Assembly: GCA_034717975.1 (NCBI GenBank)
Contig: JAYEMF010000106.1
Span: 35,908-75,523, forward strand
Reading direction: 5' to 3'
DNA from: Campylobacterota bacterium
Lineage (GTDB): Bacteria > Campylobacterota > Campylobacteria > Campylobacterales > Sulfurimonadaceae
DNA: 39,616 bases
Shown here: positions 4,834 to 38,290 of the stretch, piece by piece
How the letters are laid out: every line of letters starts with the position of its first letter
How positions within the stretch are numbered: the stretch's first letter is position 1
The notes under the pieces: generated by a model
What the model was told of the DNA's origin: nothing
Database searches by the model: none
Seen by the model: the letters and a program-made list of their open reading frames with translations, nothing else
Position numbers and translations under genes: made by a program

Positions 4834-4852
4834 CTTGTATAGAGGAGCTGTT

Positions 4853-6622: not shown

Positions 6623-7437
6623 CCTGGTTATGGATTGTGCTGGCCCCGTTGCTCGGCGGTCTGGTCTATGGGGGTGAACGGGTGCTTCGGGCACGGATGC
6701 AGCGCCGTCAGGGTCCGCCGATTCTGCAGCCCTTTTACGATATGTTCAAACTGATGGACAAACGGACTATCATCATCCACTCTACCCACGCCTTGCTGGC
6801 GGTGGCACACTTTTTCCTGCTCTGGTTCAGTGTCGCAGCGATCTTTCTGGGCTGGAACCTGCTCTACATCATATTTCTGCACCTCTTTGCACTTATCGTC
6901 CTGGTAGCGGCGGGGTACAGTGTACGTTCGGTCTACTCCCACATAGGGGCCAACCGTGAACTGCTGGCTCTGGTGGCGTATGAACCGGTGCTGATCCTGG
7001 TCGCTGTCGGCTTTTACCTGAGTGGGGGAAGTTTTGATATCGGTACGATTCTTGAACAGGAGAGTTATCTGCTGCAGATGCCGCTGCTCTTTATAGCTCT
7101 GTTGATCATCGTTCCGATCAAGGTGAAAAAGTCCCCTTTTGATGTCGTCGAAGCGCATCAGGAGATCGTCGGGGGTGTCGAGGTGGAGTACAGCGGCCTC
7201 TTTTACGAGTTTTTGTATATGGCCCGCTTTCTGGAGTATATTTTTATCTACAGCTTCATCTTTCTCTTCGGCGGGAGTTCGGTCTGGGTCGGGATCGCGT
7301 TGGTGACAGGCACCTTTTTCCTGATCAATCTTGTCGATAACGCGACAGCCCGTGTACGTACGGCAGATATGATCAAGATCGTCTATACGGTAGCGATAAC
7401 ACTGGCGGTAGCCAATATTTTATGGATTGTCCTATGA
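6619..7437 (+). CDS. echB: Ech hydrogenase membrane subunit (NuoH family)
   Basis: ERVLRARMQRRQGPPILQPFYDMFKL and PFDVVEAHQEIVGGVEVEYSG are NuoH/EchB motifs; ATGA overlap with echA. Confidence 0.85.
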   Translation: MTWLWIVLAPLLGGLVYGGERVLRARMQRRQGPPILQPFYDMFKLMDKRTIIIHSTHALLAVAHFFLLWFSVAAIFLGWNLLYIIFLHLFALIVLVAAGYSVRSVYSHIGANRELLALVAYEPVLILVAVGFYLSGGSFDIGTILEQESYLLQMPLLFIALLIIVPIKVKKSPFDVVEAHQEIVGGVEVEYSGLFYEFLYMARFLEYIFIYSFIFLFGGSSVWVGIALVTGTFFLINLVDNATARVRTADMIKIVYTVAITLAVANILWIVL

Positions 7438-7961
7438 AGTTCTTTACCCCCTTTCGTAAAAAGTCACCTTGGATCCTGCACTACAACGCCGGAAGCTGCA
7501 ACGGCTGTGATATCGAGATACTTGCGGCACTGGCACCAAAATATGACCTGGAGCGTTTCGGTGTCATCAACACCGGAAATCCGAAACAGTCCGATATCTT
7601 TTTGGTCACCGGTCCGGTCACCTACCGTTCACGCGAGCGGCTGGTTGAACTTTACACACAGATACCGGAACCAAAAGTGGTGATAGCCGTAGGTGCCTGC
7701 ACGGCAACAGGCGGGATGTTCCGCGATATGTATAACGTCGAGGACGGGATTGACCAGTACATCCCGGTCGATGTCTATGTCCCGGGGTGTGCCACGACTC
7801 CGCAGCTCATCATCGACGGGGTGGTCAAGGCTCTGGCAATTCTGGAAGCGAAAACCAAAGAGATCGAGAAGCCATTCAAACTTTTCGGGGCGATCGAGAC
7901 GGTAGCAAATAAAATCAGCCGCCATAAGATGGCGACAAAGGTGGATCATGAGAAAGATTGA
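7434..7961 (+). CDS. echC: Ech hydrogenase small [4Fe-4S] subunit (NuoB family)
   Basis: KSPW, SCNGCDIE, VTGPVT, VGAC and VDVYVPGC; ATGA overlap with echB at 7434. Confidence 0.88.
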   Translation: MKFFTPFRKKSPWILHYNAGSCNGCDIEILAALAPKYDLERFGVINTGNPKQSDIFLVTGPVTYRSRERLVELYTQIPEPKVVIAVGACTATGGMFRDMYNVEDGIDQYIPVDVYVPGCATTPQLIIDGVVKALAILEAKTKEIEKPFKLFGAIETVANKISRHKMATKVDHEKD

Positions 7962-8292
7962 GACGACCTATTTAACACTGCTGGATGATTTGATGGCATT
8001 TTATAAGCCGGAGATCTGGCATTTTTTAACGCTTAACGGCATTGATCTGGGTGAAGGGAAGATCGAACTGCAGTGGATCTTTTCAAAGTATGGCGCAAAA
8101 GATGAGACGGTTGTCTACTATGCCAGCAGCGATTATGAGACGCCGGCCCCTTCCATCGTCTCGCTTATCCCATCGGCGATCATGGGAGAGCGAGAGGTGG
8201 TCGATATGTTTGGTGTGACCATCGACGGAGCGGAAAAAGGGCTCTATCTCGATGGCGACTCGCTCTCGATGCCGCTACGGTGTTCATTATGA
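7948..8292 (+). CDS. echD: Ech hydrogenase subunit D (NuoC-like)
   Basis: PSIVSLIPSAIMGEREVVDMFGV NuoC-like motif; 114 aa; position in the operon. Confidence 0.8.
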   Translation: MRKIETTYLTLLDDLMAFYKPEIWHFLTLNGIDLGEGKIELQWIFSKYGAKDETVVYYASSDYETPAPSIVSLIPSAIMGEREVVDMFGVTIDGAEKGLYLDGDSLSMPLRCSL

Positions 8293-9374
8293 AGAAGGTA
8301 GTCAATATCCCTCTGGGTTCCCAGCATATCTCACTGCTTGAGCCGATCCGCTTTCAGTTTACAACGGAAAACGAGAAGATCGTCGAGGTGGGTGCCGATG
8401 TCGGCTTTGTCCATCGCGGGATCGAGAAAGCGTGTACCGAACAGTTCGAGTGGAAAAAGGTACCTTATGTCGTGGCCCGTGTCTGCGGTCTCTGCGCCAT
8501 CACCCATTCGCTCTCCTATGTGTTGGCGGTGGAGAAACTGCTGGGTTTTGAGGCCAATGAACGCATCAAATACCTGCGGATGCTGATGGTCGAGCTTGAC
8601 CGCATCCATTCGCATCTGCTCTGTCTCGCCCATGTAAGCGAAAATGCCGGATTCGAAGCGATGTTCATGCAGATCATGGCAGACCGTGAACTGGTGATGG
8701 ATATCCAGGAGGCGATCAGCGGCAACCGGGTGCAGTTTGACTACATCGCCATCGGCGGTGTCAACCGTGACATCACCTCTGAACTGGCGCAGCTGGTACA
8801 CAGAAATCTTGATCTGCTTAAACCGAAGATCGATGACCTGATGGAGCGTTTCAGCAACAACTGGTCACTCTCTCTGAAATATAAAGGTATCGGAGCGCTT
8901 ACGTACGAAGAGGCGTATACCTATAATACGCTTGGGCCGTTGGCCCGTGCTGCCGGACTGAAAACCGATGTCCGTGTAGAGAGCTCGGATTTTCCCTATG
9001 AAGCGGTAGGGTATGAGATGATGGTGGAGAGCAGCGGAGATATCTATGCCAGAAACATTGTCCGCATCAGGGAGATCTTCAACAGTATTGCGATGTGCAA
9101 GAACATTGTCGACAACCTCCCGACAGGCGAGATCATCGAGAAGGTCAAAGGCAAACCCGATGGCGAGGCCGTCGCCCGGGTGGAAGCACCTCGCGGCGAA
9201 CTCATGTATCTGGTCAAGGGGAGCAAGAAAAATTTTCTGGACAGGGTGCGTATCAAAACGCCTACATTTTCTGCCATCCCGGCGATGGTCGAGGTGTTCA
9301 AGGGAAGCGAGTATGCCGATGCGCCGGCGATCCTGGCTTCGTTTGACCCCTGTATGTCCTGTACGGCTAAATAA
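8289..9374 (+). CDS. echE: Ech [NiFe]-hydrogenase large subunit (group 4)
   Basis: Both Ni-binding motifs are intact (RVCGLC and DPCMSC); HRGIEK, EAPRGE; no C-terminal extension; ATGA overlap at 8289. Confidence 0.9.
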   Translation: MKKVVNIPLGSQHISLLEPIRFQFTTENEKIVEVGADVGFVHRGIEKACTEQFEWKKVPYVVARVCGLCAITHSLSYVLAVEKLLGFEANERIKYLRMLMVELDRIHSHLLCLAHVSENAGFEAMFMQIMADRELVMDIQEAISGNRVQFDYIAIGGVNRDITSELAQLVHRNLDLLKPKIDDLMERFSNNWSLSLKYKGIGALTYEEAYTYNTLGPLARAAGLKTDVRVESSDFPYEAVGYEMMVESSGDIYARNIVRIREIFNSIAMCKNIVDNLPTGEIIEKVKGKPDGEAVARVEAPRGELMYLVKGSKKNFLDRVRIKTPTFSAIPAMVEVFKGSEYADAPAILASFDPCMSCTAK

Positions 9375-9392
9375 GATCAATGGAGGTACATA

Positions 9393-9851
9393 GTGTTTAA
9401 AGCAGTTATTCAAGCCTTTACCAACCTTTTTAAACCGCCTCATACGGTCAAATACCCTTTTGAAGAGGATGTCGTCCTGCCAAAAGATTACAGAGGCCTC
9501 ATAGAGTACAATGAAGAGGAGTGTATCTTCTGCGACAAGTGTGAAAAGGCCTGTCCGCCTAAGTCCATTGTCTTTTATCAGCATGAAGACGGCTCGAAAG
9601 AGTACAAGTACAACCCCTATCTCTGCATCTACTGCGGGGAGTGCATAAGAGCCTGTCCAAAGGCCGAAGAAGCACTGTGGCAGAGTGAGAAAAAACAGCT
9701 CAGTGCGACCAAAGAGGATGATGTCAACAACCAGTGGTTTGTCTGGCAGCGCGAAGCGGCTGCAAGCCGTGAAGCCTATGCAGCAGCTAAAAAAGCTGCT
9801 AAAGAGAAGAAAAATGCTTCTAAAGGTGATGAAGGGGAGGCAAGTGTTTAA
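9393..9851 (+). CDS. echF: Ech hydrogenase 2x[4Fe-4S] subunit (NuoI family)
   Basis: TVKYP, YRG, CIFCDKCEKACP and CIYCGECIRACP; GTG start with GGAGG RBS. Confidence 0.88.
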   Translation: MFKAVIQAFTNLFKPPHTVKYPFEEDVVLPKDYRGLIEYNEEECIFCDKCEKACPPKSIVFYQHEDGSKEYKYNPYLCIYCGECIRACPKAEEALWQSEKKQLSATKEDDVNNQWFVWQREAAASREAYAAAKKAAKEKKNASKGDEGEASV

Positions 9852-10004: not shown

Positions 10005-12377
10005 GTGAAAAAGTTGGCATGGTATCTGATCGTTATTTTCATCCTGTTTGCGCTGGTTATCTCTTCGTTTATTTTTGTCTCTTCTGAGTTTGAGAAACAG
10101 ATTAGAAAAACAGAAAATGAGATTAATGGGGTTTTGTTCGCCAAAAAAGTTCAGTCTCTTATTGTAAAACTCCAGCTGCTCAGAGGGTATGGCCAGTTTA
10201 CGGAAGATGCGACTACTGATACAGAGCTTCAGGAAATTGCATCGGAAAAAGAGCAAATAAATCTTTCTCTTCAGCAAGATATTGCCGAATTTAAAGAGTT
10301 TAAAGTGAAATTTCCAAGCCTGTATGATGATGAGTATAGTTATATTCTTGATACTTTGCGGGTGTTAAAGCAGAAAAATGCTATGGGGCCAGCTGAACTT
10401 TTTCAAAAGTACACGCATCTCATTACAAGACTCAAAGAGAAATTTTATCATCTGGGTATAGCGTCTGAACTCTTTTTTGAGGAGGAGTCTGAAAGCTACT
10501 ATTTAATGGATATTCTTTTTGATCATCTGCCAAATTATATTGAAGCTATTGCCAGACTCAGAGGTGAGACGTCACGTTATCTTCTACAAAAAGATTTGTC
10601 GCAAAATTTGACAGACTCTATTAGTAACAGCTGTTATATGTGTGAAAATGAACGAAGTGAGATTAAAAAAATCATTGATGTCATGCATGATCACAATCAA
10701 AAGATGACTTTCTCGACCAACCTTACAGAAATAGAAAGCAATCTATCGGAGCTGAGAAAATATATAAAAAAAACGATCAATGGTGAAGCGATTAATATTA
10801 CGGCATTGGTTTTTTTTAAAAAGGCCTCCTTGGTAGTTGATCAAAGTAAGGAAATGTATGAGATGAGTACGGACTTTTTATTACAAAAACTACAATCAAG
10901 AGAACAAAGGTTTAAAAGCAGGCAACAGTATAGCGTGATGGCTGTTGTCCTGTTCGTTCTGCTTATGTCTGCAATACTCTACTTTATGGTTAGAAATACA
11001 CGAATATTGATGACACGTGAAGAAGCAGAGAAAGAGGAGCTGATCGCAACCAATAATTTGAAAACAGTTTTATTGCAGTGCAATACACTTGAGGAGATGT
11101 CTGTAAAAGCGCTCACTTTTCTGGCAGAAAAGTCCAATGCATTTCAGGGGATGATCTACCTTTACAGTGAAGAGAATGACAAACTCTACCTTTCAGCTAC
11201 CTATGCAGCAGAAGATGCTGATCCGATCGTTGAGATGGGCGAGGGAACTGTTGGACAAATAGCGTTAACTAAGAAGAATGTCTGTAATAGGTATCCTTCA
11301 ATGCACATAGAGAAAGAGAGTATAGCAGTGACACCGAGCACGGTTTGTACGTTTCCATTTCTAAGTTCGAATCAACTGGTTGCCGTTGTAGAGCTGAGCT
11401 TTTTGAGTGATAAACAAAAGTGCTCTATTGACGATGCAGAGCATTTTATCGAGATTATCATTGGTTTTTTACGTGATGCCCTGCATGAGCAGAACAATCA
11501 AAAGCAACTTGAACTGCTGGATAAAAATGTAATGACATCGAAAACAAATAAAGAGGGTGTGATTATAGATATCAGTGCGCTGTTCGCAAGTGTAAGTGGG
11601 TATACAAAAGATGAGTTGATCGGAAAGAATCACAATATACTCAAACATTCGGATACTCCGGTTGAAGTCTATCAAGAGATGTGGACGACACTCTTGTCCG
11701 GCAGGGAGTGGAGGGGTGAGATTAAAAATCGTAAAAAAGATGGAAGTGATTATTGGATAGAGACACTCATAACACCAGACAGGGACAACTATGGGAATAT
11801 TCTTGGCTTCTCCGCCGTTATCCATGAGATCACAGACAAAAAAAGAGTTGAAAAGATCTCCATAACCGATGCCTTGACCGGACTTTATAACCGCCATTTT
11901 TTTGATATCACTTACCCCCGAATTTTTAAGAGTGCAAAACGGGAAAAGAGGGGCATGGTATTTTTAATGATGGACATCGACTTTTTCAAACAGTATAATG
12001 ATACTTATGGCCACCAGAAAGGGGATGAGGCGCTCAGATCAGTCGCAGAAGTTATGAACGAACAGTTTACGCGACCGGATGATTACCTCTTCAGGCTCGG
12101 CGGAGAAGAGTTTGGTGCGCTTTATTACAGTGATAACCTAGAAAGTGCCTATAAAATGGCAGAAACAGTGAATCAACAGGTTGTAGAGCTTAAAATCGAT
12201 CATGAACAAAACAGTGCATCGCCGTATCTGACCATCTCAATCGGATTGTTTTTTATCCCGGCTGATTGTCATCTTATAGATTTGGATGAGATCTATAAAG
12301 CAGCTGACGATGCACTATACAGAGCCAAAGAGAGTGGACGTAATTGTATTGAGCTGGTTGAGAGTACAATATGTTAA
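10005..12377 (+). CDS. Membrane-anchored diguanylate cyclase (periplasmic helical sensor, GAF, PAS, GGDEF)
   Basis: Two TM helices flank a periplasmic domain; GAF-like GEGTVGQIA; PAS (SGYTKDELIG...WRGEIKNRKKDGSDYW); DALTGLYNR, DIDFFKQYND, I-site RPDD and active site GGEEF. Confidence 0.9.
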   Translation: MKKLAWYLIVIFILFALVISSFIFVSSEFEKQIRKTENEINGVLFAKKVQSLIVKLQLLRGYGQFTEDATTDTELQEIASEKEQINLSLQQDIAEFKEFKVKFPSLYDDEYSYILDTLRVLKQKNAMGPAELFQKYTHLITRLKEKFYHLGIASELFFEEESESYYLMDILFDHLPNYIEAIARLRGETSRYLLQKDLSQNLTDSISNSCYMCENERSEIKKIIDVMHDHNQKMTFSTNLTEIESNLSELRKYIKKTINGEAINITALVFFKKASLVVDQSKEMYEMSTDFLLQKLQSREQRFKSRQQYSVMAVVLFVLLMSAILYFMVRNTRILMTREEAEKEELIATNNLKTVLLQCNTLEEMSVKALTFLAEKSNAFQGMIYLYSEENDKLYLSATYAAEDADPIVEMGEGTVGQIALTKKNVCNRYPSMHIEKESIAVTPSTVCTFPFLSSNQLVAVVELSFLSDKQKCSIDDAEHFIEIIIGFLRDALHEQNNQKQLELLDKNVMTSKTNKEGVIIDISALFASVSGYTKDELIGKNHNILKHSDTPVEVYQEMWTTLLSGREWRGEIKNRKKDGSDYWIETLITPDRDNYGNILGFSAVIHEITDKKRVEKISITDALTGLYNRHFFDITYPRIFKSAKREKRGMVFLMMDIDFFKQYNDTYGHQKGDEALRSVAEVMNEQFTRPDDYLFRLGGEEFGALYYSDNLESAYKMAETVNQQVVELKIDHEQNSASPYLTISIGLFFIPADCHLIDLDEIYKAADDALYRAKESGRNCIELVESTIC

Positions 12378-12400
12378 TAAACAGCAGACAGGAGGATAAG

Positions 12401-14836
12401 ATGCGTATAGTTATTGTTGGCGGCGGGATTGCCGCCGTATATACAGCCAATGCCATAATGGAGCTCAAACGTGATGCCGAAGTGGTGATCGTCTCCGGGG
12501 AGAAGTATGCCCCGTATGACCGTATTCACCTCTGTGCCTTGGTGGATGGGAGTGAAGATGTCGATGGCGTGACGCTTGAACTCGACCCTGCTGTCAAAGT
12601 CGAGCTGGATCAGGAGATCACCTCCATCGACAGAGATGCCAAACGTATCTACTCCGAGCATGCGATGTTCGCTTATGACAAGCTCATCATCACGACCGGT
12701 TCCAAGCCCGGAGAACTTTTCGATATCAGCGGCATTGAAAACGCTACGACCTTTCGAAGTGCCGATGACAGCTTCAAGATAGCGAAAAGCATCAAAGATA
12801 AAAATGTCATCATCATGGGAGTCGGACCGATCGGTCTGGAACTGCTCGACACCTTGATGAAGATGCCCGATGCCAAAGGGATCTACCTGCTCTCACGCGG
12901 ACCCCATCTCTACTCGAAAGATCTCAACCCCGCTTCCATCGCACTGATCCAGGGGATCTTTGAAGCCGATCCGCGCATTACCATCTCCTTCAATGACGAG
13001 ATCGTCGATAAAGAAACTGAAGGTAGTCAAATCACGACAGTCTCTACCAAAAAACATACCATTGATGACCCGTTCATCATTTTTGGCGTCGGTATCTCTC
13101 CCAATGTCGGTTTTGCTGCGTCATCTGTTGAGGTCAATAAAGGGGTTCTGGTCGATGATACGATGTGTTCAAGCGACCCCGACATCTATGCTGTCGGCGA
13201 ATCGGCTGAAATACGCTCAAGCGGCTATGTTGCCGGCCGAGTGAAAGAGTGTACGCTTCAGGCGAATGTCGCCGTAGCGAACATTTTGAAGACAGAAGAG
13301 CTGAGCATCAAGGAGGAAGCGGCGATTGACGGGCTGAAGGTCGGCTCCTTCCTCTTTACCGATGTCTCATCGCCGAATTATGATGTCCGCAGTGAAGATA
13401 ACGAGCATATTGTTCTCTATTCGAAAAAAGAGAACCGCATTGACCAGTACATCATCAACAGCGACAGACTTGTAAGGTTCATCGGGATCAACTCCAACAT
13501 CGATGCCATACAGCTGAAAAAAATGATCGAAAACGATGAAGAGGTGGATGCTGCCTACTTCTACCAAAACCGTCTTATCAGTGAACGCGGCCGCATCGTA
13601 TGTAGCTGTGAGAGTGTCTTTGAACAGGACCTTGTCGATCTTATCAAAGAGAATGCCGTTACCAGTTTTGGTGAGCTTAAAGGATTGAGCGAAGCGGGCC
13701 GAACCTGCGGCCGATGTAAAAAAGATATCTCCGATATTATCGCCGCAACCCCGGTAGACCCGGAAGAGGCAGCGCGTATCAAGGCGGAGAAAATAGCAGC
13801 CAGAGATGCTGCAGAGCTGGCAAAAGTTCAAAAGCGGATCGACAAGTTCAACAAACTGCACCCGGCCAATCAGATCGATGCCAGTAACCTTGAAGAGGCG
13901 ATCAACTCCTTTGATATGAATCAGGAGTATAACCGCTGGGTCTCGATGATCACGGCCAGCATGCGGCTTCCGCATCGCTATGAAGGGGTGGTCAAGTGCG
14001 GGATCCAGAATCTTAACAAGATCCCGATTGTCTGGCTGGAGCTGTCGGACTGTACCGGCAACTCCGAGGGTTTCATAAAGTCAGCCCATCCGAAAGTGGA
14101 CGACCTGATCCTGAAATATATCTCGCTCGATTATCACGATCTGCTTATGGCGGCGGCAGGCGATCAGTCTGAGAGCGTGCTTGAAGGTATCATTGAAAAT
14201 GACAAGGGTAAGTATATTCTGATGGTCGAAGGGGCGGTGCCGCTGGGGATGGATGGCAAGTTCCTGCGTATCGGGCCAAAAGGCGAAACGGGTGAAGAGC
14301 TTTTGAAACGGGTAGCCAAGGATGCAGCAGCGGTGCTGGCTGTCGGTACCTGTGCGCTCGATGGCGGTGTCGTTGCCGCTGAACCCAATCCTACCGGAGC
14401 GGTAGGTGTGGCCGAGGCGCTTGGCAGGGACGATATCATCAACCTGCCGGGTTGTCCGGTCAACCCGATCAATATTGTCGGAACCCTGCTGCACTACATC
14501 ATGTTTGACGAACTCCCGGCCCTCGATGCCAAGAACCGACCGGAGTGGGCCTACAGTTTCAGGGTCCATGACAACTGTGAACGGCGCGGTCACTACGATA
14601 TGGATGAGTTTGTCCTGGAGTGGGGTGATGAGGGGGCGAAAAAAGGGTGGTGCCTTTTCGAGATGGGCTGTAAAGGGCCGTATGCCGATCTGAACTGTTC
14701 GCTTGTGAAGTTCAATGAGGGAACCAGCTGGCCGGTTCAGGTGGGCCATGGCTGTTTTGCCTGCGGTGAAGGGAAGATCGCCTTCGACCACTACGCCAAC
14801 AATAGAAAATTAGAGGTTGAACCCGATGAAAAATAA
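12401..14836 (+). CDS. Fusion protein: NirB/NasB-like FAD/NAD(P)H oxidoreductase + BFD-like [2Fe-2S] domain + group-1-type [NiFe]-hydrogenase small subunit
   Basis: Flavoprotein motifs GGGIAA, YDRIHL, TTGS, GVGPIGLE, IYAVGE; BFD motif CSC...CGRC (13601-13717); from about 14021 hydrogenase small-subunit motifs IVWLELSDCTGN, SLDYH, VEGAVP, GTCA, PGCP, HDNC, WCLFEMGCKGP, SWPVQVGHGCFAC. RBS GGAGG before ATG 12401. Confidence 0.9.
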   Translation: MRIVIVGGGIAAVYTANAIMELKRDAEVVIVSGEKYAPYDRIHLCALVDGSEDVDGVTLELDPAVKVELDQEITSIDRDAKRIYSEHAMFAYDKLIITTGSKPGELFDISGIENATTFRSADDSFKIAKSIKDKNVIIMGVGPIGLELLDTLMKMPDAKGIYLLSRGPHLYSKDLNPASIALIQGIFEADPRITISFNDEIVDKETEGSQITTVSTKKHTIDDPFIIFGVGISPNVGFAASSVEVNKGVLVDDTMCSSDPDIYAVGESAEIRSSGYVAGRVKECTLQANVAVANILKTEELSIKEEAAIDGLKVGSFLFTDVSSPNYDVRSEDNEHIVLYSKKENRIDQYIINSDRLVRFIGINSNIDAIQLKKMIENDEEVDAAYFYQNRLISERGRIVCSCESVFEQDLVDLIKENAVTSFGELKGLSEAGRTCGRCKKDISDIIAATPVDPEEAARIKAEKIAARDAAELAKVQKRIDKFNKLHPANQIDASNLEEAINSFDMNQEYNRWVSMITASMRLPHRYEGVVKCGIQNLNKIPIVWLELSDCTGNSEGFIKSAHPKVDDLILKYISLDYHDLLMAAAGDQSESVLEGIIENDKGKYILMVEGAVPLGMDGKFLRIGPKGETGEELLKRVAKDAAAVLAVGTCALDGGVVAAEPNPTGAVGVAEALGRDDIINLPGCPVNPINIVGTLLHYIMFDELPALDAKNRPEWAYSFRVHDNCERRGHYDMDEFVLEWGDEGAKKGWCLFEMGCKGPYADLNCSLVKFNEGTSWPVQVGHGCFACGEGKIAFDHYANNRKLEVEPDEK

Positions 14837-16520
14837 AAAGATTGTCATTGACCCGATCACCAGAATAGAGGGGCATCTGCGTATTGAAGTAGAGATCGAC
14901 GAGAACAATGTTGTGCAAGAGGCATGGGCTTCAGGACAGCTCTTCCGCGGGATCGAAACCATCCTCAAAGGGCGGGACCCGCGTGACGCCGGGCTGATCG
15001 CACAGCGTATCTGCGGGGTCTGTACCAATGTCCACTACCGTGCTTCCATCAGTGCGGTAGAGGATGCCTATAGTATTGTGCTGCCAAAAAATGCCGAGAT
15101 CATCCGCAATCTCACAACACTGGCACTCTTTGTGCAGGATCACCTTGTCCACTATTACCATCTGCATTCACTCGATTTTGTAGATGTGGTCAGTGCGCTT
15201 GATGCGGATGAGAGAGAGGCAAAAGAGGTGAGTAAGAAGTTTCATCACTACCCTTACCGCAGTTCGACAGGCCGCTTTAGCAATGTCAAAGAGAAGCTGG
15301 CTTCTTTTGTCAAAGCGGGGCGTCTGGGACTCTTTGCCAATGGTTACTGGGGGCACAGTGAGTATAAACTGACCCCGGAAGAGAACCTCGTTCATATGAG
15401 CCACTATCTCGACGCTCTGCGTATTCAGCGTGATCTGAGCAAAGCGATCGCCATCTTTGCCGGCAAGACGCCGCATCCGCAGAACCTTATCGTCGGCGGG
15501 GTGACGAGTGTCGCCGATATGCTAAACCCGCAGCGTCTGAACGATTTTATGTTTATTATCAAAGATGTCAGAGACTTTATCGAGCGGGCCTACATCCCCG
15601 ATATTATGATGGTAACAAAAGCCTATATGGGTGAGATCAAAGCGGGTGTCGGGCGCGGAAGCGGCAACTTCCTGGTTGCCGGCGGTTACCGCTTCGGCAA
15701 GGCGAAGACACTCTTTAGCGAAGGGGTGGTCACGGGGCATGATTTTGAAAATATCGAAGCCTTTGATGTGACGAACATTACCGAAGAGGCATCACGGGCA
15801 TGGTATACGGATGATGAACCGGCTTCTCCGTATGAAGGAACAACTACTCCGAAGTATACTGATCTCAATGAGGATGGAAGCCTTAAGACCGAGGGCAAAT
15901 ACAGCTGGGTCAAAGCGCCGCGCTATAAGGGAAAACCTATGGAAGTGGGGCCGCTTGCGCGGATGGTGATCGGCTATGCCAAAGATTCGGAAGTCATCAA
16001 GCCCTATATGGAGCGCTTTATGGAGGCGACCGGAATGGAGCTGATGGACTTTTCGACGACCGTCGGACGTACTGCCGCACGGGCGGTCGAGGCGCAGATC
16101 TGTAATGACTACATCTTCGATTTTATCAGTGATCTCATCGAAAATATCAAGTATTATGATGAAGAGACCTGGACCAAGTACGTGTTTGAAGAGCTGCCGA
16201 CAGAAGGAAAAGGTGCCGGGATTTTTGAGGTTCCGCGCGGAATGCTCTCCCACTTCGTCCGTATCGAAGATGCGAAGATCGCCAACTATCAGGCGGTGGT
16301 CCCGACGACATGGAACGCTTCACCCAAAGATGCCTCAAATGTTCGCGGGCCGTATGAAGAGTCCCTTGTAGGTATCACCCTGGCTGATCCTTCCGCTCCA
16401 CTGGAAGTGTTACGGGTGATCCACTCGTTCGATCCGTGCCTTGCCTGCGCGGTACATGTGATCGATACCAAAGGGAGAGAGCTGGCGGAGTACAGAGTCA
16501 ATTCGGCCTGTAGCATTTGA
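14826..16520 (+). CDS. hydB: Group-1-type [NiFe]-hydrogenase large subunit
   Basis: IDPITRIEGHLRIEV, RGIETILKGRDPRDA, QRICGVC, GKYSWVKAPRY, VVPTTWNASP, and SFDPCLACAVH followed by a cleavable C-terminal extension. Confidence 0.92.
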   Translation: MKNKKIVIDPITRIEGHLRIEVEIDENNVVQEAWASGQLFRGIETILKGRDPRDAGLIAQRICGVCTNVHYRASISAVEDAYSIVLPKNAEIIRNLTTLALFVQDHLVHYYHLHSLDFVDVVSALDADEREAKEVSKKFHHYPYRSSTGRFSNVKEKLASFVKAGRLGLFANGYWGHSEYKLTPEENLVHMSHYLDALRIQRDLSKAIAIFAGKTPHPQNLIVGGVTSVADMLNPQRLNDFMFIIKDVRDFIERAYIPDIMMVTKAYMGEIKAGVGRGSGNFLVAGGYRFGKAKTLFSEGVVTGHDFENIEAFDVTNITEEASRAWYTDDEPASPYEGTTTPKYTDLNEDGSLKTEGKYSWVKAPRYKGKPMEVGPLARMVIGYAKDSEVIKPYMERFMEATGMELMDFSTTVGRTAARAVEAQICNDYIFDFISDLIENIKYYDEETWTKYVFEELPTEGKGAGIFEVPRGMLSHFVRIEDAKIANYQAVVPTTWNASPKDASNVRGPYEESLVGITLADPSAPLEVLRVIHSFDPCLACAVHVIDTKGRELAEYRVNSACSI

Positions 16521-17056
16521 GCCGCATCATTGTCATCGGTGTTGGAAACATCCTCTTCCTGGATGAAGGGGTAGGTGTCTATGCCGCGGCCTATCTGGAT
16601 GCCAACTACAGTTTTTCTCCACCCATAGAGATCATAGACGGGGGAACACTGGGAGTAAGGCTCAGTGAGTATTTTCTGGCGTATGATGATGTCATTATCT
16701 GCGATACGGTCTCTATCGATGATAAGGCAGGCTCTGTCTACGCGCTGAACGATGAGGCACTCTCCGGTCTGGGAAAAACGGCGCAGAGTGTCCACGAGAT
16801 CGAGATCACACAGATGCTCGAGACCTGCAAAATGGCTGGCAAGTGTGCCGATGTCGGGATCGTAGGGGTGGTTCCAGAAGATATTGAAACGGTAGCTTTC
16901 GGGCTTAGCCGACATCTCAAAGATGCCTTTCCCCAAATGATAGAGACGATTATCTCGTTACTTGAGACCAAAGGTATTACTGTGCAAAAGGGTGGGAAGT
17001 CCACCCCGCTTTCAGAGATCATTGCCGGCTATACGACGGCTACGGCCCCGCGATGA
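16517..17056 (+). CDS. hydD: Hydrogenase maturation endopeptidase (HyaD/HybD family)
   Basis: IGVGNILFLDEGVGV, IIDGGTLG, SVHE; overlaps the large-subunit stop codon. Confidence 0.9.
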   Translation: MSRIIVIGVGNILFLDEGVGVYAAAYLDANYSFSPPIEIIDGGTLGVRLSEYFLAYDDVIICDTVSIDDKAGSVYALNDEALSGLGKTAQSVHEIEITQMLETCKMAGKCADVGIVGVVPEDIETVAFGLSRHLKDAFPQMIETIISLLETKGITVQKGGKSTPLSEIIAGYTTATAPR

Positions 17057-19317
17057 AGCATCTAAAGATCACCTTGACCGGCATTGTCCAAGGTGTCGGA
17101 TTTCGCCCTTTTGTTTATAAACTGGCTCAGCGGCATCACTTGAAAGGGTATGTATTAAACAACGGCAAAGGGGTGAGTGTAGAGCTTGAAGGAAAAGCGG
17201 AATCACTTGATCTGTTTATGAGATCCATGTATGAAGAGCTCCCGCCACTTGCACGGATAGACAGTGTGATTACAGATGATGCTCTGCCTGCTGTCGGTTA
17301 TAGAACATTTGATATTCTCCACTCCCGGGAAAACAGCCAAAAAAGTGCGTTGGTATCGCCGGATATATCGCTGTGTGATGCGTGTCTGGCAGAGATGCAG
17401 GATCCGCACAACAGACGCTACCGCTACCCTTTCATCAACTGTACGAACTGTGGTCCGCGCTACAGCATCATAAAATCTATTCCTTATGACCGATCACGTA
17501 CTTCAATGGATGTTTTTACTATGTGCCCCGAGTGTAAAGCAGAGTATGAGGACCCCGGTGACCGCCGTTACCATGCCGAGCCTATAAGCTGTGATGCGTG
17601 CGGACCGGAACTGCTCTGTCTGGACAGAGAGAGGAGGATCAAAGGAGAGGGAGGTGATGCCGTTGGTCTGACTGCCGAAGCTGTCAAAGCGGGGCAGATC
17701 GTCGCCATCAAAGGGGTTGGCGGTTTTCATCTGGTCTGTGATGCGACCAATGAAGCGGCAGTCACCCTGCTGCGGGAACGGAAAAAACGCCTTACCAAAC
17801 CTTTTGCGGTGATGTTCCCCTCGCTTAAGGCGCTTAAAAGCAGTGCAGATATTACTCCCGAAGAGGAGGAGCTGATCATCTCCAAAGAGCGGCCCATTGT
17901 TGTTGTCAGGAAAAAGATGGAGAGCATTGTAGCTGATGGTGTCGCTCCGGCCATTGATCGTCTAGGTGTTTTTTTACCCTATACGCCGCTGCACCATCTG
18001 CTGCTTGATCAGATAAAAGAGCCGATCGTCGCTACCAGCGCCAACCTCAGTGATGAACCGATCATCCGTGACAGCGATGAGCTGTTTAACAAGCTTGGCG
18101 GAGTCGTTGATCTGCTTCTCGATTACAACAGAGAGATCGTCAATGCCAATGATGACAGCGTGACGCAGATCGCTGAAGGAGAGTTGATAACGCTTAGAAT
18201 GGCCAGAGGCTTTGCCCCTAAAAGCATAAAGCTCCCCTTTAAGATCACTGAAAAGATCCTTGCGGTCGGCGCCCATCAGAAAAACAGCATTGCCCTGGCC
18301 TTTGATGAGACAGTGATCTTGAGTCCGCATATCGGTGACCTGAACTCCATTGAAGCGTTTGAATATTTTGAGCGCACCATGGAGACCTTCAAACGCTTTT
18401 ACGATTTTGAGCCCGATATGATCGTTTGTGACAAACACCCTGACTACGAGACTACGAAGTGGGCGATAGAGCAGGGGAAGAGGCAAGAGGAAAGGGGAAA
18501 GAGGGTTGAAGTGATTCAGGTTCAGCACCATTATGCGCATCTGCTGGCCTGTATGGCCGAACATGATCTTAAGAAAAAAGTTTTGGGGTTTGCCTTTGAT
18601 GGAACGGGTTATGGTGAGGGTGGAACTATCTGGGGCGGGGAAGTGATGATTGCCGATGAAAAGAAGTATGAACGGGTAGCGAGCATCAAACCGTTTAAAT
18701 TGCCTGGCGGTGAGAGAGCGGTGAAGGAGCCGCGACGTGTGGCTCTCTCTCTGCTCTTTGAGATCTATACACTTGATGAGATAAGAGTGCTTGATCTTCC
18801 GACACTTCGACAGTTTACAGAGCAGGAGATAAGAGCCCTTCATCTGGCATGGGAAAAGGGAGTGAACGCTCCGCTTACAAGTTCGATGGGCAGGCTGTTT
18901 GATGCGGTGGCAAGTCTGGCTGATATCGTGCATCACTTGAATTTTGAAGGGGAGAGTGGATTGATGATGGAGTCTTTTGTGGATGAGAGCATCGAGGAGA
19001 GTTTCCCGTTTACAATCCATGAAGGTGAGATCGATACAGCTCCGATGATCAGAGCGATGGTAGCGCTTGAGGACAAAGTAGTGATTGTATCGATGTTCTT
19101 CAATACGCTTATCGAGGTCATCGCTGAGATCGCGAAGAGGTATCCTGAACTGCCGCTGCTCTTTTCCGGCGGTGTTTTTCAAAACAGGGTATTGGTTGAA
19201 AAAGTGCAGAAACAGTGCCGACGAAATGGTCGAGTGCTCTATTTCCAACATGATACCCCGATCAATGATGGTGGTATTGCGCTCGGTCAGGTGTGGTACG
19301 GAATTAATCAGCTCTGA
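17053..19317 (+). CDS. hypF: Carbamoyltransferase HypF
   Basis: GIVQGVGFRPFV acylphosphatase domain, zinc fingers (CDAC...NCTNCGPRY, CPEC), QHHYAH, DGTGYG, NDGGIALGQ. Confidence 0.97.
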   Translation: MKHLKITLTGIVQGVGFRPFVYKLAQRHHLKGYVLNNGKGVSVELEGKAESLDLFMRSMYEELPPLARIDSVITDDALPAVGYRTFDILHSRENSQKSALVSPDISLCDACLAEMQDPHNRRYRYPFINCTNCGPRYSIIKSIPYDRSRTSMDVFTMCPECKAEYEDPGDRRYHAEPISCDACGPELLCLDRERRIKGEGGDAVGLTAEAVKAGQIVAIKGVGGFHLVCDATNEAAVTLLRERKKRLTKPFAVMFPSLKALKSSADITPEEEELIISKERPIVVVRKKMESIVADGVAPAIDRLGVFLPYTPLHHLLLDQIKEPIVATSANLSDEPIIRDSDELFNKLGGVVDLLLDYNREIVNANDDSVTQIAEGELITLRMARGFAPKSIKLPFKITEKILAVGAHQKNSIALAFDETVILSPHIGDLNSIEAFEYFERTMETFKRFYDFEPDMIVCDKHPDYETTKWAIEQGKRQEERGKRVEVIQVQHHYAHLLACMAEHDLKKKVLGFAFDGTGYGEGGTIWGGEVMIADEKKYERVASIKPFKLPGGERAVKEPRRVALSLLFEIYTLDEIRVLDLPTLRQFTEQEIRALHLAWEKGVNAPLTSSMGRLFDAVASLADIVHHLNFEGESGLMMESFVDESIEESFPFTIHEGEIDTAPMIRAMVALEDKVVIVSMFFNTLIEVIAEIAKRYPELPLLFSGGVFQNRVLVEKVQKQCRRNGRVLYFQHDTPINDGGIALGQVWYGINQL
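18468..18505 (+). repeat. Purine-rich heptamer tandem repeat (RGGVAAG x4) inside hypF
   Basis: GGGGAAG AGGCAAG AGGAAAG GGGAAAG; 18468-18489 matches 39595-39616 at 21 of 22 nt. Confidence 0.55.
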
Positions 19318-19523: not shown

Positions 19524-20330
19524 ATGTGCCAGGATTGTGGTTGCAGTATAACGGAACACACGCATCCAGTGCAAACCAGTGGCACTGAACACACGCATCC
19601 AGTGCAAACCCGTGGCACTGAACACACGCACTCGCATACCCATCAGGCAGCACTGCATGATAATCCGCAACTCAACGATAAAAAGACCATAGAGGTCATC
19701 TCGAAGATTTTAGATAAAAATGATCATGAAGCCTCGCATAACCGGGCGCATTTTGACAAGCACAGTGTCCTTGCGATCAATCTGATGAGTGCGCCGGGCA
19801 GCGGCAAGACGACACTGCTGGAACGTATTGCCGACCTCTCCGATCTTAAATTCGGTGTGATCGAAGGCGATCTTGAGACCAGCCGTGATGCCGATCGTAT
19901 CAGGGCCAAAGGAATTCCGGCCTATCAGATCCAGACGGGGAGCGCCTGTCACCTGGATGCTTTTATGGTACACAAGGGACTGCACGATATGCCTCTTGAA
20001 GCTATGGATCTCTGTTTTATTGAAAATGTCGGTAACCTGGTCTGTCCGGCAAGCTATGACGTCGGATCGCACCTCAATATTGTACTGGTCTCCATTCCGG
20101 AAGGGGGCGACAAGATCGAAAAATACCCTGTGATGTTCAGACAGGCTGATCTCATACTGATCACCAAGACCGATCTTTTGCCTTATTTTGATTACGATAT
20201 TGAACATGAAAAAGCTGAAGCCCGCAAGATCAAACCGAATGTCGATATTCTGGAAGTGAACATCAAGGATGAGGCAAGTATTGGCCGGGTCATCGAATGG
20301 ATCGCATTCAAACAGAAGATGCGAAGTTAA
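19524..20330 (+). CDS. hypB: Hydrogenase nickel-insertion GTPase HypB
   Basis: N-terminal MCQDCGC, His-rich linker, SAPGSGKTT, ACHLDA, ENVGNLVCP, TKTD. Confidence 0.97.
   Translation: MCQDCGCSITEHTHPVQTSGTEHTHPVQTRGTEHTHSHTHQAALHDNPQLNDKKTIEVISKILDKNDHEASHNRAHFDKHSVLAINLMSAPGSGKTTLLERIADLSDLKFGVIEGDLETSRDADRIRAKGIPAYQIQTGSACHLDAFMVHKGLHDMPLEAMDLCFIENVGNLVCPASYDVGSHLNIVLVSIPEGGDKIEKYPVMFRQADLILITKTDLLPYFDYDIEHEKAEARKIKPNVDILEVNIKDEASIGRVIEWIAFKQKMRS
19554..19630 (+). repeat. 33-bp tandem repeat (about 2.3 copies) in the hypB His-rich linker
   Basis: GAACACACGCATCCAGTGCAAACC(A/C)GTGGCACT at 19554 and 19587, with a partial copy at 19620; encodes EHTHPVQT(S/R)GT. Confidence 0.9.
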
Positions 20331-20331
20331 T

Positions 20332-20625
20332 ATGTGCCTCTCCATCCCCTCCAAAGTGGTAAAGATCGATAAAGAGAAGAACACGGCCATTGTCGATACT
20401 ATGGGGGTTCAGCGTGAAGCAGGGTTGGACCTGATGGAAGAAGATGGTGTGGCGGTTGGCGATTATGTTCTGCTGCACATCGGTTTTGTGATGAACAGGA
20501 TCGATGAAGCGGATGCTCTGGAGTCATTGAAGATATATAACGAAATCCTTGAAAAGATGGAAGATCAGGAGCGTGAAAGCGTTATTCTTGAGAGTGACAA
20601 CTGTGAAAACAGAGATGCTCCTTGA
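20332..20625 (+). CDS. hypC: Hydrogenase chaperone HypC
   Basis: MCLSIPSKV N-terminus; VGDYVLLHIGF. Confidence 0.95.
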   Translation: MCLSIPSKVVKIDKEKNTAIVDTMGVQREAGLDLMEEDGVAVGDYVLLHIGFVMNRIDEADALESLKIYNEILEKMEDQERESVILESDNCENRDAP

Positions 20626-21743
20626 GTGAACTGAAACTTAAAGAGCTTTATGACGGGTTTCGTGATCCGGACACTATCCGCATTCTGGCAAAACAGATCA
20701 GGGAAGAAGCCAAGGAGCTGAAAGAGCCGCTGAAGATTATGGAAGTGTGTGGCGGTCATACCCACACTATCATGAAGTACGGACTTCCACAGCTGCTGCC
20801 GGAGAACATCGATTTCATACATGGTCCGGGCTGTCCGGTCTGCATTATGCCAAAAGAGCGTATCGATCATGCCATTGCTCTGGCCAAGATGGATGATACG
20901 ATTCTATTGACGCTCGGCGATATGATCCGTGTGCCGGGCTCAAAAACCTCTCTGGCTGCCGAACGCGCTGCCGGTCGTGATATCAGGCCCCTCTATACCC
21001 CCGCTGATGCCCTGAAGATCGCGAAGGGGAACCCCGATAAAAAGGTGATCTATTTTGCGATCGGTTTTGAGACGACGACGCCGATGACGGCGGCGGTGAT
21101 CAAACAGAGCATCGACCAAAATATAAGCAACCTCTTCTTTCATATCAACCATGTGCTTGTACCACCCGCAGTCGATGCGATCATGGCCGATGGCAAAGCC
21201 AAGATCAATGCCTTCATAGGACCGTCGCATGTCAGTGTCATCACCGGAGCGAAGATCTATACGCCGCTCCCCTTGACTTATAGCACGCCGGTAGTGGTGG
21301 CCGGATTTGAACCGGTCGATGTACTGCAGGGTATTTTGATGATAGTGCGTCAGAAAGTACAGAACAGGGCAGAGCTCGAGATCGAATACACCCGTTCTGT
21401 TACGATGGAAGGCAATCTCAAAGCACAGGAGATGATTGACACTTATCTGCAGCCCCGGGCACATTTTCGCTGGCGTGGCATAGGTGATATCCCGAACAGT
21501 GCACTGGAACTCAAGCCGAAGTTCGCCCATCTCGATGCAGAGAAACTTTTTGCCGAGGTGCTGCCGACTGACCCGATCGATGATCATAAACTCTGTATCT
21601 GCGGGAGCATCCTAAAAGGGCTGGCCAAGCCGATGGATTGTAAAGTGTTTGGAAAGGCCTGCACACCAAACAACCCTATGGGAAGCTGTATGGTGAGTTC
21701 TGAAGGGGCGTGTAATGCCTATTATCGTTATGCAGAGATTTGA
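20622..21743 (+). CDS. hypD: Hydrogenase maturation protein HypD
   Basis: MEVCGGHTH, GPGCPVC, GFETT, PSHVS, CMVSSEGAC. Confidence 0.97.
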   Translation: MSELKLKELYDGFRDPDTIRILAKQIREEAKELKEPLKIMEVCGGHTHTIMKYGLPQLLPENIDFIHGPGCPVCIMPKERIDHAIALAKMDDTILLTLGDMIRVPGSKTSLAAERAAGRDIRPLYTPADALKIAKGNPDKKVIYFAIGFETTTPMTAAVIKQSIDQNISNLFFHINHVLVPPAVDAIMADGKAKINAFIGPSHVSVITGAKIYTPLPLTYSTPVVVAGFEPVDVLQGILMIVRQKVQNRAELEIEYTRSVTMEGNLKAQEMIDTYLQPRAHFRWRGIGDIPNSALELKPKFAHLDAEKLFAEVLPTDPIDDHKLCICGSILKGLAKPMDCKVFGKACTPNNPMGSCMVSSEGACNAYYRYAEI

Positions 21744-25048: not shown

Positions 25049-25125
25049 GACATGGCAAACTGAAATATAATCAGGGAGTGAGGCTGAAGTCAAATAAAAT
25101 AGTGTTTATTTGCAAAGGCATATAG

Positions 25126-26153: not shown

Positions 26154-27152
26154 ATGAATCAGATACAGCTTAGCCACGGTGGTGGCGGGGAAGAGACTAA
26201 CAACCTGATCCACGATCTTTTTTACCATCACTTTAAAAATGAGATCCTCATCAAAGCCGAAGATGCCGCGGTATTGGAGGTGGAGAAAAAGATCGCTTTT
26301 ACGACGGACAGTTTTACGGTCAGTCCGATCTTCTTCAGTGGCGGTGATATCGGAAAACTGGCTATTGCCGGGACGGTCAATGACCTGGCGATGATGGGTG
26401 CACGGCCGCTCTATCTGAGTTCAGCTTTCATAATCGAAGAGGGACTGCCCTTTGAAGAGCTGACGCGCATTGTCGAGAGCATGGCGGCAGAACTGGAAAA
26501 ATCGGGGGCGAAGATTGTCTGCGGTGACACGAAAGTAGTTCCCCGAGGCGGTGTCGACAGGATCTTTATCAATACGGCGGGTATCGGTGAGGTCGTAAGA
26601 GAAAATATCTCGGTAAGCAGTCTCAATGAGGGTGATGTCATCATCGCTTCGCGAGATGTTGGCCGTCATGGGGCAACCGTGTTGATGGCACGCGAAGAGC
26701 TGGAGGTGAGTGCAGACCTGCAGAGTGACTGCGAGACACTCTGGCCTGCGGTAGAAGCACTTATTGAAGGTAATATCTCTATCAGCACCATGCGTGATGC
26801 CACGCGCGGCGGACTCTCTGCCGTACTCAACGAATGGGCGCAGGCTAGTGAGCTCTGCCTGGAGATCGAAGCGTCTGCGGTCAAGATCAGGGATGAGGTG
26901 CAGGGTGTCTGCGAAATATTTGGGTTTGAAGCGATGGAGTTTGCCAATGAAGGGACTTTTATATTGGCCGTCGCACCGATGCATGCCGCTTTTGCCATCA
27001 AGATACTTCAGCAATTCGGTTTTTGCAAAGATGCCGCAGTGATCGGGCGTGTTACTCAGAAATACCCGGGAAAAGTCGTATTGCACTCAAGCTACGGCAG
27101 CAGTCGATTCCTTGATCTGCCAAAGGGCGAACTGCTGCCGAGGATCTGCTGA
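26154..27152 (+). CDS. hypE: Hydrogenase maturation carbamoyl dehydratase HypE
   Basis: LSHGGGG, FTTDSF, GTVNDLAM, GDTKVV, RDATRGG, C-terminal LPRIC. Confidence 0.97.
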   Translation: MNQIQLSHGGGGEETNNLIHDLFYHHFKNEILIKAEDAAVLEVEKKIAFTTDSFTVSPIFFSGGDIGKLAIAGTVNDLAMMGARPLYLSSAFIIEEGLPFEELTRIVESMAAELEKSGAKIVCGDTKVVPRGGVDRIFINTAGIGEVVRENISVSSLNEGDVIIASRDVGRHGATVLMAREELEVSADLQSDCETLWPAVEALIEGNISISTMRDATRGGLSAVLNEWAQASELCLEIEASAVKIRDEVQGVCEIFGFEAMEFANEGTFILAVAPMHAAFAIKILQQFGFCKDAAVIGRVTQKYPGKVVLHSSYGSSRFLDLPKGELLPRIC

Positions 27153-27194: not shown

Positions 27195-27536
27195 ATGCAT
27201 GAGTACTCCATTGTTCAGGCACTGCTGGAGCAGATCGAGCCGATAGCTGATGAGAACAGTGCGGAGAAAGTGACAAAAGTGATCGTCAAGATCGGTGTGA
27301 TGAGCGGGGTGGAGCCTCACCTGCTCGAGGTCGCTTTTAACACTTTTAAAGAGAAGACCATCTGTGAGGGTGCCGAATTTGTGATGAAGATACAGCCGGT
27401 AACGGTTCACTGCCTGGATTGCGAAGCGCACAGCGAACTTGATGTCATGCACTACCGCTGCCCGGAGTGTGAAAGCCTGAATATAAAGGTCACCGACGGT
27501 GAAGAGATGTTCCTGATGACCCTGGAGATGGAATAG
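27195..27536 (+). CDS. hypA: Hydrogenase nickel metallochaperone HypA
   Basis: MHEYSIV N-terminus; CLDC...CPEC zinc site. Confidence 0.96.
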   Translation: MHEYSIVQALLEQIEPIADENSAEKVTKVIVKIGVMSGVEPHLLEVAFNTFKEKTICEGAEFVMKIQPVTVHCLDCEAHSELDVMHYRCPECESLNIKVTDGEEMFLMTLEME

Positions 27537-38138: not shown

Positions 38139-38290
38139 AAATGCCTTTCTATTAAAAAACGTATACAAAATTATAAGGCAGTATGAGAAAAAATAATCCA
38201 TCTTGCTGTATAAATATTAATCAACTTATGATTATAAAACAGTCTATTCTCTATTATAATTCGTGGTATCAATACTATCAGGAGAGACAA
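38139..38290. promoter_or_regulatory. Divergent promoter region between narB and the nitrate transporter
   Basis: AT-rich; TATAAT on the + strand at 38255-38260 and on the - strand at 38170-38175. Confidence 0.5.

Follow-up and report, generated by a model that had tools for sequence, protein, structure and literature searches.

A candidate cytoplasmic [NiFe]-hydrogenase of Campylobacterota with a NirB-like flavoprotein fused to its small subunit

The locus described here encodes a two-gene [NiFe]-hydrogenase whose small subunit is joined, in one reading frame, to a NirB-like reductase with sites for flavin adenine dinucleotide (FAD) and nicotinamide adenine dinucleotide or its phosphate (NAD(P)H), and which may couple H2 to NAD(P)H in the cytoplasm. 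It lies in a stretch of 39,616 nucleotides (nt) of contig JAYEMF010000106.1 (positions 35,908 to 75,523; the whole stretch is called the window, coordinates are counted from its first letter, and features are on the + strand unless stated otherwise), part of a Campylobacterota metagenome-assembled genome (MAG) from brine that is 99.9% complete. A single unbroken open reading frame (ORF) occupies 12371..14836; its start is placed at the ATG at 12401, giving 811 amino acids (aa) and a stop (12401..14836), because homologues open with MRIV and because direct reading of the sequence finds a Shine-Dalgarno AGGAGG at 12390..12395, 5 nt ahead of that ATG. The gene, delimited with the ORF list, Pfam, NCBIfam, and homologue and genome searches, encodes a NirB-like FAD/NAD(P)H reductase module (aa 1-395, 12401..13585; Pfam, NCBIfam, and alignments), a BFD-like [2Fe-2S] domain (aa 396-448, 13586..13744; Pfam and alignments), a connector (aa 449-540, 13745..14020; alignments, genome search, and nonsynonymous-to-synonymous rate ratios, dN/dS), and a [NiFe] small-subunit domain (aa 541-811, 14021..14833; Pfam, NCBIfam, and alignments). 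The gene for a group-1-type [NiFe] large subunit of 564 aa (14826..16520; ORF list, PF00374, alignments, and tree) overlaps the small-subunit stop by 11 nt, and directly 3' of it stands the gene for a HyaD/HybD-type maturation endopeptidase of the HycI fold (16517..17056; Pfam and NCBIfam).

The composite nature of the small subunit is evident from domain models. Pfam places Pyr_redox_2 (PF07992) at residues 1-270 (E 2e-36), Fer2_BFD (PF04324) at 399-448 (E 1e-9), Oxidored_q6 (PF01058) at 551-698 (E 3e-27), and NiFe_hyd_SSU_C (PF14720) at 718-793 (E 1e-24), and finds no NIR_SIR (siroheme/[4Fe-4S]) domain in the fused protein. Among NCBIfam models, the best match of residues 3-453 is the NirB model TIGR02374, aligned over model positions 1-471 (139 bits, E 2e-40, against a cut-off of 578), and the hydA small-subunit model TIGR00391 matches residues 508-792 at 362 bits, above its cut-off. 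The features that would export and anchor an ordinary group 1 small subunit are missing. In alignment the protein, whose C-terminus is YANNRKLEVEPDEK, ends about 40-60 residues short of the helix of Tat (twin-arginine translocation)-bearing HydA, of HyaA, and of a Cupriavidus small subunit, and thus has no C-terminal transmembrane helix; a twin arginine is found in none of the 29 aligned members of the fused family, and RRxFxK is present in 12/12 Tat-type small subunits examined, 10 of them from Campylobacterota. No PF01292 cytochrome b occurs among the annotated window ORFs or elsewhere on the contig, the two PF01292 matches of the genome lying on contigs C35 and C114. An earlier note on this DNA had reported an uninterrupted 811-aa fusion of an FAD/NAD(P)H reductase, a BFD-type [2Fe-2S] domain, and a complete small subunit lacking its C-terminal anchor, with a protease gene after the large subunit and no hydC; the ORF list and Pfam, the alignments, and the PF01292 search, respectively, agree with that description.

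The fusion is not confined to this assembly. Among 401 Campylobacterales genomes, 26 hold a match over all 811 residues and one more holds a match clipped by a contig end; several carriers are single-contig genomes. By family, carriers amount to 18/35 genomes in f1, 5/20 in f4, 2/23 in f7, and 1/4 in f12, with none in f2 (0/118) or f3 (0/158). A search of 5.8 billion clustered proteins returned 724 matches, of which the best 120 are all 803-836 aa long and all carry PF07992, PF01058, and PF14720 (PF04324 is missing from the precomputed list in three); Hydrogenovibrio is not among the names listed for cluster members. A scan of genome contigs with the single fused protein yielded nine close relatives, and in a library of representatives at 50% identity the family has a single representative of full length (P0121, 53% identity), the rest being fragments; no unfused intermediate is evident in that library, in which no search was aimed at shorter or longer forms. 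Logan contigs from four brine-metagenome runs (all of one study, one of them possibly the source) contain the stretch and span both the reductase/BFD and the BFD/small-subunit junctions with no joints and no indels; no RNA run is listed among those that contain it. An assembly chimera, the artefact that the earlier note had named as fatal to its proposal, is discounted because 26/401 genomes share the full-length gene and the Logan contigs cross the junctions, and the architecture whose presence in other genomes it had asked about is thereby found.

The large subunit places the enzyme within group 1. It matches PF00374 at 678 bits, retains both the N-terminal CGVC and the C-terminal DPCLACAVH nickel-binding motifs, and bears a 20-residue C-terminal extension of the type removed by a maturation protease. 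Its identity is 57-82% to the partners of other fused small subunits, 48-50% to Campylobacterota HydB, 39-43% to HybC, HyaB, and a Cupriavidus large subunit, and 22-27% to group 2d large subunits from the same genomes. Against solved structures, it scores 429-496 bits with periplasmic or membrane-bound group 1 enzymes, about 204 bits with 7utd (which we take to be group 2a), and 141 bits with 5aa5 (presumably group 1h); with NAD-reducing and F420-type structures (5xf9_D, 3zfs_A, and others), only the first ~120 residues match. Neither a group 3 large subunit nor HoxFU-like genes were found among the window ORFs. A first tree of 32 rows that included group 2d put the latter on a very long branch and left the group-1 backbone unresolved. 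In a second tree of 26 rows, built by quick search with the five group 2d rows and a near-duplicate row (L008) left out, 13/13 fused-type large subunits form one clade with a Shimodaira-Hasegawa-like approximate likelihood-ratio test (SH-aLRT) value of 100, nested in a wider clade of Campylobacterota group 1 (23 rows, SH-aLRT 100), the outgroup consisting of HybC, HyaB, and the Cupriavidus sequence. The L1 and L2 strings also agree with the patterns that PMC4744846 gives for 1b, the 1b class being assigned here by motif and tree. Because fused-type large subunits form one nested clade, the fusion seems to have happened once within group 1b. That the enzyme derives from group 1 and is distinct from group 3, as had been supposed from the window, is thus in keeping with the identities, the tree, and the short N-terminal match to NAD-reducing enzymes. 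A group 2d (Hua) identity was also considered and rejected, since 2d large subunits of the same genomes are ~435-455 aa long, only 22-27% identical, and on a separate long branch.

How the two halves are joined can be traced in part. The connector between the BFD domain and the small-subunit domain is exactly 92 aa in 29/29 family members. In the search of Campylobacterales genomes, ordinary HydA genes match the fused query from residue ~455-478 onward, and the mature small subunit begins at about 540; in alignment, residues ~465-540 are homologous to the long leader of Campylobacterota HydA, including the hydrophobic stretch that follows the Tat motif, and the motif site itself reads RRDFMKW in HydA and QEYNRW in the fused protein. 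By this alignment, the second half of the connector is what remains of the long Tat leader that HydA has in Campylobacterota, with the twin arginine lost. The constant length, together with purifying selection (see below), argues for a structured connector and not a loose tether.

All cofactor ligands of the proposed chain between the active site and a pyridine nucleotide are conserved in alignments of 25 and 29 fused family members with identities down to 52%. Invariant residues comprise the FAD fingerprint (G7-G8-G9 and E34) and the second dinucleotide, NAD(P), fingerprint (G140-x-G142-P143 and E147) in both sets; the four BFD [2Fe-2S] cysteines C401, C403, C436, and C439 (29/29); and the 11 ligands of the three iron-sulfur (FeS) clusters of the small subunit, namely the proximal (C551, N554, C651, and C685), medial (C766, C785, and C788), and distal (H723, C726, C751, and C757) residues. 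The only deviation seen among ligands is Asn554, which stands where the second proximal Cys is expected. The same Cys-x-Gly-Asn motif occurs in 7/10 Tat-bearing Campylobacterota HydA, those adjoining HydB and cytochrome b (loci L024-L028, L034, and L055), and in 5/5 group 2d small subunits examined (loci L040-L044 and L055); the remaining 3/10 HydA belong to a second type with the standard Cys-x-Gly-Cys. The Asn motif is therefore a trait of the lineage and not damage, and the idea of Asn554 as a family-specific oddity or defect was rejected. Substitution rates (NG86 omega for six sequence pairs, with dS partly saturated) are 0.08-0.17 for the reductase, 0.05-0.13 for the BFD domain, 0.06-0.15 for the connector, and 0.025-0.054 for the small-subunit domain; because dN/dS is low in every module, all of them are kept by purifying selection.

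Two residues of the reductase module bear on what it reacts with. At the end of strand beta-2, the fused family has no acidic residue: position 165 is Ser, Val, or Ile and is followed by an invariant Arg166. Glu occupies position 165 in three of the five best-scoring structures for the N-terminal module (8c0z_E, 3fg2, and 6tuk), and the best-scoring BphA4 entries, which we take to be variants engineered towards NADPH, have Ala-Arg-Gly at the end of this strand. Because Arg166 is invariant where NADH-type relatives have Glu one residue earlier, the signature suggests that the coenzyme is probably NADP(H). The other residue, Cys45 (12533-12535), is invariant in 29/29 members and stands where aligned ferredoxin and rubredoxin reductases have Ser or Pro.

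The surroundings of the pair supply the means for its maturation and a potential partner. Beyond the protease gene lie hypF (17053..19317), hypB (19524..20330), hypC (about 20332..20625), and hypD (20622..21743), with hypE (26154..27152) and hypA (27195..27536) farther on (all by window ORF annotation), so that a full maturation gene set is present. Upstream, at 4835..9851, Pfam and the ORF annotation identify a six-gene Ech-type (group 4) [NiFe]-hydrogenase cluster encoding antiporter-like, NuoH-like, NuoB-like, NuoC-like, large-subunit, and 2x[4Fe-4S] proteins. In 7/26 carriers, an Ech-type large-subunit match lies within 6 kb of the pair; a full Ech gene set by Pfam is present in the window and in genomes G152 and G394, and in the latter two the Ech genes adjoin the fused pair in the same orientation. 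The large-subunit gene directly follows the fused gene in 24/26 carriers. In G074 (contig C14), a fused-type large-subunit gene lies ~9 kb from the fused small-subunit gene; in G232 (contigs C62/C63; loci L015 and L063), a large subunit with a fused-type score is on another contig, and TPR/NB-ARC and Uma2 genes come after the fused small-subunit gene. Searches with PF00374, PF01058, and PF00346 found no other group 1 or 2 hydrogenase in the window genome: the only PF00374 matches are this large subunit and that of Ech, and the extra PF01058 and PF00346 matches are two complex-I sets only. The same genome encodes ATP-citrate lyase and a NuoF homologue. Across carriers, 7/26 have no full-length PF00374 large subunit, and no group-1-like hydrogenase, other than the fused enzyme, and uptake hydrogenases are additionally present in 19/26. 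Three related Sulfurovum loci (L008:7379-7957, L009:1863-2441, and L010:7398-7976) have a gene for a 193-aa PF01292 cytochrome b561-like protein directly upstream of the fused gene, an adjacency limited to these three among the loci examined; a 59%-identical homologue of that protein is encoded on another contig of the window genome (L068).

Several further features of the window deserve brief mention. The hyp operon is split between hypD and hypE by a low-GC island (22010-26136; 33-41% guanine plus cytosine (GC) vs. ~50% in the flanks) containing an ORF6N-domain gene, a gene for a 902-aa MmeI-family restriction-modification enzyme, and a RhuM-family gene. HypB opens (19524-19650) with a His-rich tandem repeat, TEHTHPVQT twice and then THSHTH, which presumably serves to store nickel. 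Between the Ech cluster and the fused gene lies a gene for a 790-aa GAF-PAS-GGDEF protein (10005-12377; GC 36-41%), the stop of which is 23 nt ahead of the fused-gene start. At 34219-39571, an assimilatory nitrate cluster beside an MFS transporter encodes, on the - strand, a 634-aa NIR_SIR-type nitrite/sulfite reductase, which is without a NirB-type flavoprotein half, and a 692-aa molybdopterin nitrate-reductase-like protein.

Enzymes of this design have been on record since 2006. For Thiomicrospira crunogena XCL-2, a small subunit with a second, pyridine nucleotide-disulphide oxidoreductase-like domain bearing FAD and NADH sites and without a twin-arginine leader was described, and coupling of H2 and NAD(H) was proposed (Scott et al., 2006; PMC1635747). 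The XCL-2 small subunit was subsequently given as 813 aa and its large subunit as group 1b, grouping with Epsilonproteobacteria, and the design was found in Sulfuricurvum, Sulfurovum, Sulfurimonas, and Arcobacter (Hansen & Perner, 2016; PMC4744846). The enzyme, Tcr_2037-2038 in Hydrogenovibrio (Thiomicrospira) crunogenus XCL-2/SP-41, has been named both "cluster II" (PMC4744846) and "hydrogenase gene cluster I", the latter in the 2019 genome paper on SP-41, which credits H2 use by that strain to a second, group 1d cluster (PMC6501319). HydDB places the XCL-2 type in 1b (PMC6501319; PMC9751133). The novelty implied by the earlier note accordingly falls away, the design and the H2/NAD(H) idea having appeared in 2006 (PMC1635747), been extended in 2016 (PMC4744846), and been revisited in 2019 and 2022 (PMC6501319; PMC9751133). 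Its authoring model's remark that it knew of no characterised example holds good within our searches of openly licensed papers and bioRxiv, which found no biochemical characterisation.

Taken together, we judge it somewhat better than an even chance that the two genes encode a cytoplasmic [NiFe]-hydrogenase in which a single internal electron path couples H2/2H+ to NAD(P)+/NAD(P)H. H2 would be split at the NiFe site in the cytoplasm, and electrons would pass from there through the proximal, medial, and distal clusters to the [2Fe-2S] cluster, FAD, and finally NAD(P)+, in a reversible reaction for which the coenzyme would probably be NADP(H). In the host, predicted to be a reductive tricarboxylic acid (TCA) cycle autotroph, NAD(P)H would probably be made directly from H2, and the neighbouring Ech-type hydrogenase, a possible functional partner, could connect H2 with ferredoxin. 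Such a cytoplasmic wire had been put forward from the window sequence; its group 1 origin, the want of a Tat motif, anchor, and cytochrome b, and the invariance of every cofactor ligand lend it weight, and its claim to be new, given publication since 2006, does not survive. A wider proposal, which we rate as rather doubtful, is that an NADP+-reducing [NiFe]-hydrogenase arose from periplasmic group 1b independently of group 3, that the Tat leader was re-used as a rigid 92-residue connector, and that in Sulfurovaceae the enzyme forms a unit with the adjacent Ech, the fused pair and Ech standing in one apparent operon in several genomes. Under that proposal, the fused enzyme would yield NADPH, and Ech would use the membrane potential to yield reduced ferredoxin, both for the reductive TCA cycle; alternatively, the two might swap electrons between ferredoxin and NADP via intracellular H2.

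A number of observations weigh against H2-dependent NAD(P)+ reduction by this enzyme. T. crunogena XCL-2, with this hydrogenase alone, consumed no H2 under many conditions, and neither its soluble nor its membrane fractions had uptake activity (PMC4744846); S. autotrophica, which also has a large small-subunit gene (PMC4744846), did not grow on H2 and gave extracts without uptake activity (PMC4584964). A 2022 paper labels the enzyme function-unknown (PMC9751133), and the literature searches (openly licensed papers and bioRxiv) found no biochemical or genetic test of it. The NADP preference is read from a single sequence signature, that of Arg166; Ech-type genes stand beside the pair in just 7/26 carriers; and the b561-like gene of the three Sulfurovum loci may provide a membrane link for that subclade. 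This last observation, with the homologue elsewhere in the window genome, is what favours a membrane-associated enzyme that feeds quinone through a separately encoded cytochrome b and uses the flavoprotein for entry or exit of NAD(P)H. We think such an arrangement very improbable, as the adjacency is limited to one subclade, the export signal and the anchor helix are both missing in 29/29 members, and the periplasm-facing arrangement of HydC type would be unusable for a cytoplasmic enzyme. The missing activity in XCL-2 (PMC4744846) also agrees with a silent or crippled relic, rendered inactive by its odd FeS motifs and by having lost both Tat and cytochrome b; this, too, we hold to be highly unlikely in view of purifying selection on all modules, ligands invariant across four families, the occurrence of Cys-x-Gly-Asn as a lineage trait in Tat-bearing HydA and group 2d, the retention of the full hyp set and a dedicated protease, and the precedent that non-canonical cluster ligands can work (PMC4070099).

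The absence of H2 uptake in both XCL-2 and S. autotrophica would likewise be accounted for if the enzyme ran in reverse, as an NAD(P)H-oxidising, H2-evolving redox valve that sheds excess reductant when acceptors are scarce, which is exactly what was proposed for XCL-2 when oxygen is scarce and starch is being broken down (Scott et al., 2006; PMC1635747). Every cofactor site fits either direction. With redox potentials of about -414 mV for H2 and -320 mV for NAD(P)H, however, electron flow from NAD(P)H to H2 is uphill except at very low H2, and group-1-type large subunits are typically uptake-biased; since uptake hydrogenases also occur in 19/26 carriers and the habitats contain H2, we regard the reverse direction as unlikely. 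A different acceptor altogether is conceivable, with Cys45 near the flavin passing electrons to O2, peroxide, persulfide, polysulfide, or coenzyme A (CoA)-disulfide in a detoxifying or sulfur-reducing hydrogenase. The cysteine is invariant in place of the Ser or Pro of aligned reductases, the hosts are sulfur bacteria, and there are weaker yet significant matches to NADH oxidase, NADH peroxidase, and CoA-disulfide/persulfide reductases; nevertheless, the best-scoring relatives are ferredoxin/rubredoxin-reductase and NirB types and not the single-cysteine CoADR/Npx family, Cys45 is not aligned with the active cysteine of NADH peroxidase because those alignments begin only at residue 83, and the second dinucleotide site is fully conserved, which leaves this function decidedly unlikely.

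If the coupling of H2 to NAD(P)H is as proposed, reductant for biosynthesis could be made by sulfur-oxidising Campylobacterota and some Gammaproteobacteria with no need for reverse electron transport, and [NiFe]-hydrogenases would have become linked to pyridine nucleotides on at least two occasions. As a two-gene system, the enzyme is attractive for expression and for H2-driven regeneration of NADPH. Because the large subunit is usually the sole basis for classifying hydrogenases, a seemingly cytoplasmic enzyme is counted as membrane-bound, respiratory group 1b. In the two cultured organisms that have the fused enzyme as their only group-1-like hydrogenase, the tests done showed no H2 oxidation, and metagenomic claims of hydrogenotrophy from such genes may therefore be wrong. 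To the published picture, the present analysis makes modest additions: from alignments and trees, the origin of the connector in a Tat leader and its constant length, a single apparent origin inside Campylobacterota group 1, and the rehabilitation of the Asn ligand as a residue common to Tat-bearing, cytochrome-b-linked HydA; the NADP-type signature with invariant Arg166 is a further, suggestive addition. It also contributes the recurrent pairing with Ech and a tally of the genomes that have no group-1-like hydrogenase besides the fused enzyme. Neither the Tat-leader origin of the connector nor the Ech pairing was met in the literature on the enzyme, and no literature search was directed at either of the two.

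Comparison with known systems sets the fused enzyme beside five relatives, of which the XCL-2 type is the closest. Shared with it are a small subunit of ~810 aa (813 in XCL-2, 811 here) with a reductase domain bearing FAD and NAD(H) sites, the lack of a Tat motif, a cluster devoid of cytochrome b, a large subunit of group 1b that falls with those of Epsilonproteobacteria, the missing first His of the L3 motif (Q-D-H in the window protein), and hyp genes within the cluster. The XCL-2 host, however, is a gammaproteobacterium and the window host a Campylobacterota MAG from brine, which has a restriction-modification island interrupting its hyp operon and Ech-type hydrogenase genes upstream. Homology to the XCL-2 type is inferred through the members that PMC4744846 names from Sulfuricurvum, Sulfurovum, and Sulfurimonas; the Sulfuricurvum and Sulfurovum members match the fused protein at 64-76% identity.

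The group 2d (Hua/HupSL) enzymes of the same bacteria resemble the fused enzyme in having no Tat motif, a cytoplasmic location, an unsettled role, and often the same hydrogenase neighbourhood; they differ in a small subunit of ~300 aa without a flavoprotein and in a large subunit of ~435-455 aa that is 22-27% identical and sits on a very long branch. With groups 3b and 3d, such as the NAD-reducing soluble hydrogenase (PDB 5xf9), the enzyme would share H2/NAD(P)H chemistry and a cytoplasmic location, but the large-subunit lineages differ (only residues 4-124 align, at 90 bits), and those groups have separate NuoEFG-like flavin mononucleotide (FMN) diaphorase subunits where here an FAD reductase is fused to the small subunit. 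In NirB/NasB, the FAD, NAD(P)H, reductase C-terminal, and BFD [2Fe-2S] domains follow one another as they do here, although the match is far under the family cut-off (139 vs. 578 bits), a hydrogenase small subunit replaces the siroheme/[4Fe-4S] half, and Cys45 replaces the usual Ser. Finally, Campylobacterota HydABC (group 1b, Wolinella/Sulfurospirillum type) is 48-50% identical in the large subunit and 45-50% in the small-subunit domain and has in common with the fused enzyme the Cys-x-Gly-Asn proximal motif, a three-cluster small subunit, a recognisable leader region, and the type of protease; relative to it, the fused enzyme is without the twin arginine, the C-terminal anchor helix, and HydC, and has gained ~450 N-terminal residues that comprise the flavoprotein and the [2Fe-2S] domain.

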